A stretch of DNA of 64,000 bases from a virus: the IMG/VR virus record IMGVR_UViG_3300036768_000843, positions 30,994 through 94,993 of that record. One strand, written 5' to 3'. The notes below the pieces were generated by a model, which did no database searches, was not told the origin of the DNA, and saw nothing but the letters and a program-made list of their open reading frames with translations. How positions within the stretch are numbered: position 1 is the first letter of the stretch; each line of letters opens with the position of its first letter. The position numbers were made by a program, and so were the translations under genes. This document shows positions 60,357-62,493 of this stretch, piece by piece.

Positions 60357-60385
60357 TTGACTTCGTTGGCCATTCCGCATACAAA
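60357..60385 (+). promoter_or_regulatory. Putative sigma70-type promoter of the cas operon
   Basis: TTGACT-17 bp-TACAAA. Confidence 0.45.
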
Positions 60386-60396
60386 CCGTATACGAA

Positions 60397-60591
60397 ATGC
60401 CGAGGCCCAAACTATCGGCGCGGAAGCGCCGCAGTCGCACCGTGATCGTACGTGTCATGCCTGCCGAGTACCAAGCACTGGTGGCTTACGCTAAATCGCG
60501 TGAAGACACCGTCAGCGGTACCGTTCGGGCGATCCTGTCCGCCGCGTTGAGGCAGCCGGATTCCAACCACCATCGGCCAGCCGCCGAGTGA
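60397..60591 (+). CDS. Ribbon-helix-helix regulator
   Basis: VIVRVMPAEYQALVAYA....TVSGTVR pattern. Confidence 0.65.
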   Translation: MPRPKLSARKRRSRTVIVRVMPAEYQALVAYAKSREDTVSGTVRAILSAALRQPDSNHHRPAAE

Positions 60592-60597
60592 CCCTCC

Positions 60598-62493
60598 ATG
60601 AAGCGAAAAACAACCGACACACCCACGAGGGTCTTTTCGTATCGGTGCTTGCCGCCGATCACCGAGCAAGAGCGAGTCGAGGAGCAGTATCGACTCGCAA
60701 ACCAATATCGCAACGTGCTCGTCGAGATCGAACGGCGAATGCGTTCGCGTTTCCGCGACGTCGTACTGGCATGTCCGGATACGCGATGGCCGCTGCTCCA
60801 CGCGGAGGACTGCGAGGCTGCGGTGGACAATGCCTACGACGATCTGCGCGCAGCCAAGAGCGGCGGCGGCACGCCGACTGACGACGTGCTCCAGCACCTG
60901 GAGGCGTGCAAGGAGCTGCGTCGAGAGGCATGGGCAACGCTCGCCGCTGCCAAACGAGCACACGCCAATGATCTACGCCCTGGCTACGAGGCAGCACGGC
61001 AGCAGGCGCACCTCGAAGCAAAGCGCGCTCGGGGTGACTTCTCAGCCCGCGGCCTACGGCACGGTACGTACTCGCGGGTCGAAGAATCGGTGCAGCGAGC
61101 ATCGAAGATGGCCGCGCCGCCAAAGTTTCAATGCTACGACGGCACCGGATCGATCGGCACCCAGCTTACGGGCGATGCCCCGGTGCGGGGGCTCACGGTC
61201 GCCGAGCTGTATTCGTGCGAAGACACGCGGATCCGCCTCGGACGGCCCGGAGAGGCCGACAGGCACCCGCGCGCGGAGGTCGCCGGGACGACATGGGCTG
61301 ACTACTGGCGACTGCCGAAGAACGTGCGTCGCCACGCTGCTCGTACGTACGTTGACTTGCGCATTGGTAGCAACCCGGATCGAACGCCGATTTTCGCGCG
61401 GTTCCCGATCGTCTATCATCGACCGCTGCCGAACAACGCCGTGATCAAGTGGGCTTATGTCGTGCGTAGGCGGATCGGTCGGCGCTTCGAGTGGCGTCTC
61501 CAGTTCACGATCGAGGACGACACGTTCCGATCTCCGCACATCCCCGTCGGGGAGGGTGTATGCGCAATCAACTTGGGGTGGCGCAATCTGCTCGACGACG
61601 AGAAGCAGGTGTGTGGCGTGCGTGTCGGCTACCTCCTCGACGGAGACGGCCGCGAACGCGAGCTTCGCGTACCCGAACCGACGAGGATGCGGTGGACCAA
61701 ACCGTTTGACCTCGCATCGATCCGCGCCAAGGAATTCGATTTGGCAGTCGATCTTCTCTGCGGATGGATCGCGACGAACGCATCGATCGCGCCACAGTGG
61801 CTTCGCGAAGAGACTCGACACGCACGACACTGGCGCGCCGAAAAGAAGCTTGCAGCGGTCATCGACCGCTGGAAGCGCGAGCGCTTTGACGATGACGACG
61901 CGATCTTCGATCGCATGATGGCGTGGGCCAAACAAGACCGCCATCTACTACACTGGCAGGAACACCAGCGCGATCGGACCATCGCGCATCGCCGCGAGCA
62001 GTATCGTTTGTTGGCGACCGAGCTGTGCCGCACGTACAGCACGATCGTCATAGGCGAAATGGACCTGAACGATCCGCGCCTTTCAGCGCGCAAACCTGAA
62101 GAGGAAGGGGATCCTTGCGAGGGGCGCGACCAGCGTCGCACTGCTCGTATGGCTGCGCCTGGCGAATTGCGTGAAACCATCCGCCAGATCGCACACAAGT
62201 ACGGCACGCAGATCGTAGAGCCGCCCTCGTTCAATATCACACAGGCATGTCACGTCTGTGGCAGCATCGAAACCTGGAACCGACGCGCAGAGATCTGGCA
62301 CCAGTGTTCGAAGTGCAAGACTGCTTGGGATCAGGACGCCAACGCATGCCACAACCTGCTACGGACGTTTGCGGTGTCGAGCGGCGGGGCACAAGCGAAG
62401 GACGGTAAGGTGCCCGCAGCGGAGAACGCCAATGATCGTTCGGAGATGACCGATTTGAATGCCGAACGTGGAACCGAATCGGCTAGCTTGTGA
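60598..62493 (+). CDS. cas12: Compact type V CRISPR effector, Cas12m/V-U1-like, altered RuvC
   Basis: 631 aa; QYRLANQYRNVLVEIE, YHRPLP; RuvC-I AINLGWR (Asp to Asn), RuvC-II IVIGE, CHVC..CSKC, RuvC-III DQDANA; adjacent array. Confidence 0.85.
   Translation: MKRKTTDTPTRVFSYRCLPPITEQERVEEQYRLANQYRNVLVEIERRMRSRFRDVVLACPDTRWPLLHAEDCEAAVDNAYDDLRAAKSGGGTPTDDVLQHLEACKELRREAWATLAAAKRAHANDLRPGYEAARQQAHLEAKRARGDFSARGLRHGTYSRVEESVQRASKMAAPPKFQCYDGTGSIGTQLTGDAPVRGLTVAELYSCEDTRIRLGRPGEADRHPRAEVAGTTWADYWRLPKNVRRHAARTYVDLRIGSNPDRTPIFARFPIVYHRPLPNNAVIKWAYVVRRRIGRRFEWRLQFTIEDDTFRSPHIPVGEGVCAINLGWRNLLDDEKQVCGVRVGYLLDGDGRERELRVPEPTRMRWTKPFDLASIRAKEFDLAVDLLCGWIATNASIAPQWLREETRHARHWRAEKKLAAVIDRWKRERFDDDDAIFDRMMAWAKQDRHLLHWQEHQRDRTIAHRREQYRLLATELCRTYSTIVIGEMDLNDPRLSARKPEEEGDPCEGRDQRRTARMAAPGELRETIRQIAHKYGTQIVEPPSFNITQACHVCGSIETWNRRAEIWHQCSKCKTAWDQDANACHNLLRTFAVSSGGAQAKDGKVPAAENANDRSEMTDLNAERGTESASL

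Follow-up and report, generated by a model that had tools for sequence, protein, structure and literature searches.

Effectors of the Cas12m family, which belong to the type V-M CRISPR (short palindromic repeats, clustered and regularly interspaced) systems, were grouped by Wu et al. (2022), as summarised in PMC10442227, into clades distinguished by the residues of their RuvC triad: HEK/HQK, HDD, DED/NED and DED/DND/NED. The D-E-D, H-D-D and N-D-D forms tested by Bigelyte et al. bind DNA in dependence on a protospacer-adjacent motif (PAM) and none of them cuts it (PMC11013384); all the tested Cas12m, D-E-D included, are devoid of cleavage of double-stranded DNA (dsDNA), of RNA and of collateral substrates (PMC11013384), and tested members counter phages and plasmids (PMC11013384, PMC10442227, bioRxiv 10.64898/2026.03.26.714355). 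PmCas12m, which has an N-D-D triad, is also nuclease-dead (bioRxiv 10.64898/2026.03.26.714355). A RuvC mutation of MsCas12m did not abolish the processing of the precursor CRISPR RNA (pre-crRNA) (PMC11013384), and maturation of the CRISPR RNA (crRNA) may therefore persist without the RuvC-I Asp. The published norm for type V-M is an array-only locus without adaptation genes or an anti-repeat, associated with a gradual decay of RuvC (PMC10691335). The present study deals with a locus of this type located at the end of a 64,000-nucleotide stretch of DNA, hereafter the window, which constitutes the last 64 kb of a single contig of 94,993 bp (G000:C1:30994-94993; IMG/VR virus record IMGVR_UViG_3300036768_000843), the contig end falling inside the repeat array. 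It comprises a cas12m gene coding for a protein of 631 amino acids (aa), a CRISPR array directly downstream and, directly upstream, a small gene possibly coding for a ribbon-helix-helix (RHH) protein.

Cas12m has previously been encountered in viruses. A preprint of September 2026 described a Cas12m of D-E-D type, accompanied by an array of 8 spacers, in the myxophage MV-1 and reported it as the first phage Cas12m (bioRxiv 10.64898/2026.09.14.751636). The GenBank record of Virus Rctr197k (KX853510.1; Caudoviricetes, 197 kb) holds a D-E-D Cas12m homologue (L151, record positions 110803-114219), 30.5% identical to the protein described here, annotated only as 'similar to transposase' and followed, 34 bp further, by an annotated CRISPR of 1.5 kb. 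The present locus resembles those of MvCas12m (MV-1) and Rctr197k, likewise virus-encoded, placed beside their own array and without cas1/cas2/cas4, trans-activating CRISPR RNA (tracrRNA) or any spacer target found. It differs from MvCas12m, a D-E-D protein of 610 aa (D305/E463/D555) associated with 8 spacers, against at least 22 here, and from the D-E-D protein of Rctr197k, whose motifs read GIDLGWR and VVLERW.

Among the solved structures, the best sequence match is 23vw (577 aa), with which the effector shares the order of the motifs, the WDQD.NA RuvC-III, the zinc ribbon and a similar size; 23vw however displays an Asp at RuvC-I (AIDLGWR) and a Glu-Glu pair at RuvC-II (IVLEEF), where the protein from the virus record has an Asn and a Gly-Glu and is longer by about 50 residues. 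MmCas12m2 (8hhl, 8hhm, 8hio) and GoCas12m (8pm4), experimentally established as DNA binders that silence and do not cut (PMC10442227, PMC11013384), share the same fold and a crRNA-only organisation in which no adaptation genes are found. They are only 20-22% identical to it, their His-Asp-Asp site binds a single Mg ion on the displaced strand, in contrast to the Asn-Gly-Asp site found here, and their carriers are bacterial, often plasmids, instead of a virus record. In MmCas12m2, the substitution D485A weakens silencing at intragenic sites. An Asn at RuvC-I is shared with PmCas12m, with the N-D-D forms of Bigelyte et al. and with the N-E-D members of clades 3/4 of Wu et al.; these N-D-D and N-E-D forms retain the RuvC-II acid, which is a Gly here, although the published N-E-D label may include Gly-type proteins if the next residue was the one counted.

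Little of the locus is new, because Asn-type triads, the absence of cutting, RuvC decay and virus-borne Cas12m have already been published or deposited; an Asn at RuvC-I, carriage by a virus and the absence of both tracrRNA and adaptation genes are all documented features of Cas12m. What the locus adds is an N-G-D site with a single carboxylate, a partly decayed array of at least 23 repeats and a possible RHH partner, and it represents a long-array, well-formed addition to the growing set of viruses with a binding-only Cas12m. The comparisons reported below also document three points beyond their passing mention in surveys: once the RuvC-I Asp is lost, the RuvC-II Glu is regularly lost in turn, mostly to Gly, the RuvC-III Asp staying in place; these losses seem to have occurred more than once; and small RHH-like genes recur beside cas12m. 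Considered as a whole, the observations are very probably best explained by an intact type V-M CRISPR-Cas12m locus of an uncultured virus or large mobile element of microbial mats and soil, the array of which would guide DNA binding without cutting.

The Cas12m effector and its RuvC site

The effector gene and the positions discussed in this section are the following.

60598..62493, + strand: cas12m, 631 aa, type V-M effector; the sole long plus-strand open reading frame (ORF) there, identified with PDB, Pfam and AlphaFold2/Foldseek
61570..61572, + strand: codon AAC of Asn325, at the position of the RuvC-I catalytic Asp (AINLGWR = residues 323-329)
62053..62058, + strand: Gly486-Glu487 of RuvC-II (Gly486 = GGC, 62053-62055) in TIVIGEMDL, placed by the alignment with 23vw and by column counts over 235 homologues
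62248..62316, + strand: zinc ribbon of the TNB domain, CHVC...CSKC (C551, C554, C570, C573), from Pfam and alignment
62335..62337, + strand: codon of Asp580, the RuvC-III carboxylate in WDQDANA, kept in nearly all of the 235 homologues

The 631-aa ORF is a full-length Cas12m (type V-M) effector. This agrees with the initial annotation of the window, which had called it Cas12m-like, and sequence, fold, repeat architecture and the absence of tracrRNA and of adaptation genes all confirm it. In a phmmer search of the PDB, residues 12-591 of the query aligned with residues 21-570 of the Cas12m chain 23vw_A (E 8.5e-61), the next matches being UnCas12m4a (E 2.5e-22), MmCas12m2 (E 3e-19) and GoCas12m (E 1.6e-8); matches to TnpB and Cas12f structures were confined to the C-terminal part of the protein. 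The Cas12f1-like TNB domain PF07282 (E 7.9e-9) is the sole Pfam match of the effector, and its TnpB matches in NCBIfam are sub-threshold. The AlphaFold2 model, computed with an alignment of 25 relatives as input, reached a predicted local distance difference test (pLDDT) score of 83 and a predicted template modelling (pTM) score of 0.64, and conforms to the Cas12m fold, which consists of WED, a long helical REC, a RuvC with helical insertion and the TNB zinc ribbon. Compared by Foldseek over about 620 columns, it gave template modelling (TM) scores of 0.74/0.78 with 8hhl and 0.75/0.79 with 8pm4 (0.71-0.79 over the top three, which include 8hio), against 0.3-0.6 with Cas12f and TnpB. Homologues are abundant in the representative library, with 3,518 sequences at E<=0.001, of which 1,663 at E<=1e-30. 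The protein, initially qualified as a candidate compact tool, is not particularly compact, since its 631 aa exceed both the 596 aa of MmCas12m2 and the 577 aa of the solved Cas12m 23vw, and no size advantage over characterised Cas12m can be expected from it as a tool.

The Asn previously noticed at RuvC-I is present as residue 325 in the motif AINLGWR, and the zinc ribbon, also described as retained, keeps its four cysteines. Gly486 occupies the RuvC-II column where 23vw and the D-type relatives have a Glu. One of the three carboxylates of the RuvC site is thus left (N-G-D), and with Asn325 and Gly486 in the place of the other two, two-metal DNA hydrolysis would be excluded. In enzymes of the RNase H fold, an Asn is no substitute for a metal-binding Asp in two-metal catalysis. 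The N...G-E...D pattern is common to relatives at 97, 81 and 62% identity, and the gene was found near letter-identical in contigs of two microbial-mat runs, which may be the source sample; because close relatives and mat-metagenome contigs share both residues, Asn325 and Gly486 are states of the lineage and not errors.

The loss of two of the three catalytic residues could also be taken as a sign that the locus is a decaying relic, with an array no longer renewed and an effector whose function is lost, useless to the element. We consider this explanation, to which the state of the array described below also contributes, to be unlikely: the 631-aa ORF is intact, its motif states are those of the three relatives mentioned above, and an alignment of 25 sequences, relatives 41-97% identical to the protein, retains 73 invariant columns, including Asp580 and the four cysteines of the zinc ribbon. 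Moreover, functional members of the Cas12m family have as a rule lost RuvC residues (PMC11013384).

The distribution of the RuvC residues was obtained from a motif-anchored alignment of the 235 homologues. An Asp at RuvC-I is almost always paired with a Glu at RuvC-II, whereas an Asn is paired with a Gly in about 26 proteins, with a Glu in 13, with an Asp in 6 and with Thr, Cys or other residues in the rest. The initial annotation had proposed that the RuvC-II acid was shifted by one position, and Glu487 does follow Gly486; the functional part of this proposal is probably wrong, as the residue after the Gly varies among the N-G relatives (E, K, A, D, N or I) and a shifted acid is therefore not a conserved feature. 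The same column bears on the hypothesis that the effector still cuts, either with a site in which a neighbouring acid, Glu487 or Asp489, would join Asn325 and Asp580, or by acting on RNA or on single-stranded DNA. In favour of such a residual activity, Asp580 is nearly invariant, an equivalent of Glu487 follows the Gly in 15 of the approximately 26 N-G proteins, and Omura et al. left open the hydrolysis of DNA by the D-E-D and N-E-D clades (PMC10442227). The variability of the residue next to the Gly, the inability of Asn to replace the metal-binding Asp and the behaviour of the tested Cas12m, in which even a complete D-E-D triad is not accompanied by dsDNA, RNA or collateral cleavage (PMC11013384), make it very improbable.

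The phylogenetic analysis suggested with the initial annotation was carried out on the C-terminal half of the Cas12m homologues (P0001-P0252) with FastTree. The query and three close relatives, all of N-G type, form one clade (support 0.999), whose sister group counts 65 proteins; there, two D-E proteins branch first, followed by an N-E/N-G clade of 23 proteins beside a D-E clade of 40. Further N-G proteins are scattered elsewhere in the phylogeny. Because the N-G combination occurs in the small clade of the query, in a separate clade of 17 and on scattered single branches, the Asn-plus-Gly state seems to have arisen more than once among the Cas12m branches. The pattern suggests a repeated and parallel loss of the same two carboxylates with the third Asp kept, and the N-G-D triad fits the 'gradual inactivation' published for type V-M (PMC10691335). 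A weaker and improbable idea is that the recurrence of the Asn-plus-Gly pair reflects selection for a particular non-catalytic, strand-clamping site and not mere decay.

In the mode of action that we propose, the array would be transcribed from its leader and Cas12m would bind a handle derived from the repeat, consisting of a 3' hairpin and a pseudoknot, and would trim the pre-crRNA itself, with no tracrRNA, this self-processing being assumed by analogy with the characterised members. The complex would then bind PAM-flanked dsDNA matching the first 17-20 nt of the spacer and would stay bound there, obstructing transcription or replication. Since every tested Cas12m binds without cutting, the mode to be expected is silencing by RNA-guided binding; the initial annotation had reached the same expectation, which is upheld here by analogy with tested members including D-E-D and N-D-D forms (PMC11013384; bioRxiv 10.64898/2026.03.26.714355). 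The likeliest targets would be rival mobile elements co-infecting the same host.

Leader, repeat array and spacer targets

Two features follow the effector gene on the same strand.

62494..62553, + strand: leader of 60 bp, AT-richer than the gene (GC 0.45 vs 0.62)
62554..64000, + strand: CRISPR array with 22 repeats of 36 nt, consensus end ...CCCGATCAGCCGACGATCGGGAC, continuing beyond the contig end

The stop codon of cas12m ends at 62493 and repeat 1 starts at 62554, which gives exactly the 60 bp previously noted between the gene and the first repeat. A comparable gap of 60-64 bp separates the stop codon from the first repeat in the related loci L011, L012, L016, L019, L020 and L025, and many of the fetched relatives possess a same-strand array, with 36-nt repeats ending in GAC, which starts 2-170 bp after the stop codon. 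In contigs from a public microbial-mat run (X1), the last spacer is prolonged by 12 nt and followed by another repeat, the array therefore comprising at least 23 repeats. The listing of public runs contained no RNA run holding the locus, a result which bears neither way on its expression.

Close to its 3' end, the repeat can form a hairpin of 7 bp, which covaries over 17 distinct related repeats, with G-C/T-A/C-G at one pair and A-T/G-C at others. Nearly all the repeats also allow, in one or the other of two registers, a pairing of 3-4 bp that links positions 8-11 with the 5' part of the loop, and this possible pseudoknot fits the crRNA handle described for GoCas12m and PmCas12m (PMC11013384; bioRxiv 10.64898/2026.03.26.714355). 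Neither an anti-repeat nor adaptation genes had been noticed in the window, and this observation now extends to the full contig of 94,993 bp. Over the 93.5 kb that lie outside the array, no exact complementarity to the repeat exceeds 11 nt, a length in the range given by 200 shuffled repeats (9-15 nt), and no match to the Cas1 or Cas2 Pfam profiles was found at E<=1, cas4 not having been searched; as the record has a completeness of about 59% and stops inside the array, the absence of cas1 and cas2 holds only for the DNA in hand. Since no adaptation module was found in the available 95 kb, the spacers would be either inherited or acquired with an adaptation module of the host.

The array itself provides observations that weigh against an intact locus and in favour of the relic considered above. 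Repeats 10, 12, 13 and 14 are altered, with mutations of the hairpin among the changes; repeat 10 is truncated at its 5' end, where the first 6 nt are gone, and a stray repeat fragment of 11 nt ends spacer 19. Spacer lengths range from 14 to 42 nt and fall into classes of 36-38 nt (leader-proximal), 24-25 nt and 14-19 nt, the last of these being another sign of decay. Some spacers are diverging duplicates: one of 24 nt is present in three copies with 1-3 differences (S6, S16 and S20), and S17 is a shortened, slightly differing copy of S11. Together with the lack of adaptation genes, these degenerate and truncated repeats, very short spacers and duplications are what an unrenewed array would leave. 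On the other side, 14 of the 22 repeats are perfect, and contigs of mat and soil runs hold extra repeat-spacer-repeat units with spacers that do not occur in the window, which may lie past the contig end or come from other strains. A different arrangement was observed on a 461-kb metagenome contig (L006:7774-9975), where a D-type cas12m is preceded directly by a second array, deduced from repeated peptide strings in the ORF listing, and followed by an array of 29 repeats.

A further point against the guided binding proposed here is that no protospacer was found for any spacer in any of the searches made. In the 93.5 kb of the contig's own sequence, the first 20 nt of each spacer gave, with up to three mismatches, no self-target beyond one chance-level match. 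The best blastn match of the spacers among the INPHARED phages had an E value of only 0.1, and that among four Cas12m-bearing IMG/VR genomes an E value of 0.016; blastn-short against all the fetched loci returned only chance matches of 12-17 nt, and no spacer target above chance was found in five metagenome-assembled genomes (MAGs) with Cas12m homologues. Exact scans of IMG/VR gave zero matches for the degenerate patterns of S6/S16/S20 and S11/S17 and for the 22-nt prefixes of S1 and S2, as well as for the 28-nt core of the repeat. The targets named in the initial annotation, competing elements or host genes, thus stay a guess after the spacer search that it had called for.

The search of the array against 401 Myxococcota species genomes yielded three matches at E<=1e-4, one of which is a perfect match of 26 nt (48 bits) formed by positions 5-24 of S20, a 20-nt core, and the 6 nt that open the following repeat. 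This match is located in the rpmD gene of a Nannocystaceae MAG (G279:C335:37424-37449; locus L107:1461-1646, minus strand), between rpsE and rplO, and covers the part of the ribosomal protein L30 gene that codes for AIRGMIR. The same 20-nt core was found in rpmD of dozens of genomes from two Myxococcota orders, and two of the three differences among S6, S16 and S20 are synonymous when read on the reverse strand. These observations are the basis of an alternative in which the guides aim at genes of the host or of the element itself, the system being a regulator of expression for host take-over or self-control and not a weapon against rivals. In its most explicit form, S6, S16 and S20 would derive from a host housekeeping gene, to which the rpmD core in the spc operon of Myxococcota is the closest, Cas12m would act as a viral CRISPR interference (CRISPRi) system shutting down a host operon, and the 24-nt spacers would result from deletions running from a GTCGTT inside the spacer to the beginning of the following repeat.

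We find the general form of this alternative distinctly unlikely, and give the explicit one just as little credit. The rpmD match is at background level, because a control search of the array against 401 Actinomycetota genomes gave five matches of equal score (45-48 bits). The four PAM-proximal nucleotides mismatch in every rpmD found by pattern searches of the two Myxococcota orders and of a sample of the phylum; G514, one of the genomes with a match, is flagged as unpublished and carries none of the conclusions. The peptides encoded by the spacers, ...MIRH and, in two copies, ...RDM..., have no counterpart in the 120 nearest L30 proteins, none of which carries the spacer-encoded His (or Asp). 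No other spacer matched the fetched ribosomal operons, 65 kb from two genomes, better than shuffled sequences did, and no self-target with up to three mismatches was retained in the 95 kb. For the first four of these reasons rpmD was rejected as a spacer target and is retained as a lead of low probability. Rival elements are kept as the presumed targets of a binding-only Cas12m. Elsewhere in the Myxococcota, an identical stretch of a 593-aa ORF (...EIRRMIRHVHG...; L129, L130 and L131, from G083, G098 and G153) matches S16 at 22 of 24 positions, the first 14 included; matches of this kind are common in GC-rich genomes.

The small upstream gene and its possible regulatory role

The region that precedes cas12m contains three further features.

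60397..60591, + strand: ORF of 64 aa, candidate ribbon-helix-helix protein, from the ORF, its codon-position GC and a sub-threshold Pfam NikA-like match
60358..60386, + strand: possible promoter, TTGACT - 17 nt - TACAAA, read from the sequence, with 10 nt between its end and the RHH start codon
60388-60395: palindrome of 8 bp, CGTATACG, read from the sequence

The 64-aa gene is probably co-transcribed with cas12m, because its stop codon is followed by the cas12m ATG at a distance of 6 nt. Its GC content by codon position (0.66/0.55/0.72) is close to that of cas12m (0.66/0.49/0.71), and its frame is intact in a diverged variant from a soil metagenome. Small ORFs of DNA-binding type recur within about 1 kb upstream of cas12m in the clade of the query. 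Similar ORFs are encoded on the strand opposite to cas12m at L007:2735-2905(-), L011:9783-9944(-) and L020:9351-9614(-), with sub-threshold NikA-like matches (E 0.0036-0.01), and on the same strand, further upstream and without profile match, at L016:7946-8143(+) and L027:9060-9224(+); at L037:9711-10001(+), an HTH_17 gene (E 1.9e-6) overlaps the start of an Asn-type cas12m. An alignment of six ORFs adjacent to cas12m makes visible a basic tail, a short beta-strand and two helices, and the profile of these six sequences retrieved NikA (2ba3) from the PDB at E 0.54.

From this pattern, the 64-aa protein is plausibly a ribbon-helix-helix protein. Several results count against the assignment, and against its control of the operon: the NikA-like Pfam match (PF21983) has an E value of 0.096 and 13.3 bits, for a cut-off of 27, and neither the protein nor its analogues in the neighbourhood of other cas12m genes ever reach a curated threshold for RHH; a single-sequence AlphaFold2 prediction gives one helix only, at residues 22-51 (pLDDT 73); the TTGACT-17-TACAAA element fails the sigma-70 criteria, and a scan found no promoter in 58800-62700. 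The prediction of an RHH homodimer complex scored 0.35, below the mark of 0.42 set for a verdict, and phmmer searches of the protein against all the ORFs of the fetched loci gave only matches at E>=0.005. Of the RHH regulator announced upstream of the effector, a small gene with an RHH-like pattern is indeed present, and the RHH call depends on sub-threshold NikA-like matches and on this pattern.

A parallel is provided by Arc, an RHH repressor acting on the promoters of TnpB-bearing IS605 elements (bioRxiv 10.64898/2026.09.24.754181). As in these IS605-family (TnpA/TnpB) elements, a very small gene of RHH type adjoins here a gene of the TnpB family, and repression of its own promoter, shown for Arc, is what we propose for the 64-aa protein; unlike Arc, with which it showed no significant sequence match, its partner is a CRISPR effector and not a transposon nuclease. 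By this analogy, the RHH-like protein would probably repress the promoter of its own operon, and if it does so, it would provide a parallel to the control of TnpB by Arc that could be useful for self-limiting CRISPRi circuits.

It is also conceivable, though on balance we lean against it, that the 64-aa ORF is no autoregulator of cas12m and instead serves as a partner, antitoxin-like or anti-CRISPR-associated, or regulates other genes, or is not a gene at all. RHH proteins often act as antitoxins, pairs of RHH and TnpB proteins have been proposed to be toxin-antitoxin modules (PMC10691335), the similar ORFs of L007, L011 and L020 are on the opposite strand, and phmmer revealed no clear homologue beside other cas12m genes. 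Against this interpretation, the codon-position GC of the ORF matches that of cas12m, which begins only 6 nt further on, an effector without nuclease activity would hardly be a toxin, and Arc itself has been demonstrated to repress promoters of TnpB elements.

The carrier of the locus and neighbouring genes

The Cas12m locus sits on a record classed as viral by IMG/VR, which agrees with its initial description as virus-borne. The record is linear, with a CheckV completeness of about 59%, and the genes of the window include a phage-type DNA polymerase, three helicases, a primase-polymerase, an exonuclease and a methyltransferase. Three contigs with a Cas12m (L061, L083 and L003) have structural-region or replication genes in common with the virus contig, and Cas12m homologues also occur in near-complete IMG/VR genomes of 80, 153 and 200 kb (CheckV 100, 100 and 92%). 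The carrier is likely a virus or a virus-like element, a status based on the label given by IMG/VR, on the replication genes and on relatives that are viral; it is weakened by the search of the ten largest ORFs in the first 31 kb of the contig, among which no capsid, portal or terminase was recognised with PHROGs.

These first 31 kb (G000:C1:1-31500; loci L149 and L150), upstream of the window, are presumed to be the structural half of the contig. The strong match there is an HNH-endonuclease/methylase-type protein of 715 aa (L150:1387-3531), the other PHROGs matches being weak, and the contig L061 (WNFL01321793.1) shares several genes of this region with the virus contig at 41-67% identity.

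Upstream of the small gene, positions 58964-60364 of the window hold an Ala-rich gene in two tandem copies, 59025-59720 (231 aa) and 59681-60313 (210 aa), which belong to no Pfam family, with a fragment of a third C-terminus beside them at 58991-59037. This block is flanked by an exact direct repeat of 28 bp (58964-58991 and 60337-60364), and this repeat duplicates the final codons of the ORF 58238-58987 as well. Variants among the metagenome contigs skip 707 or 1184 bp within the block, and its copy number therefore varies in the population.

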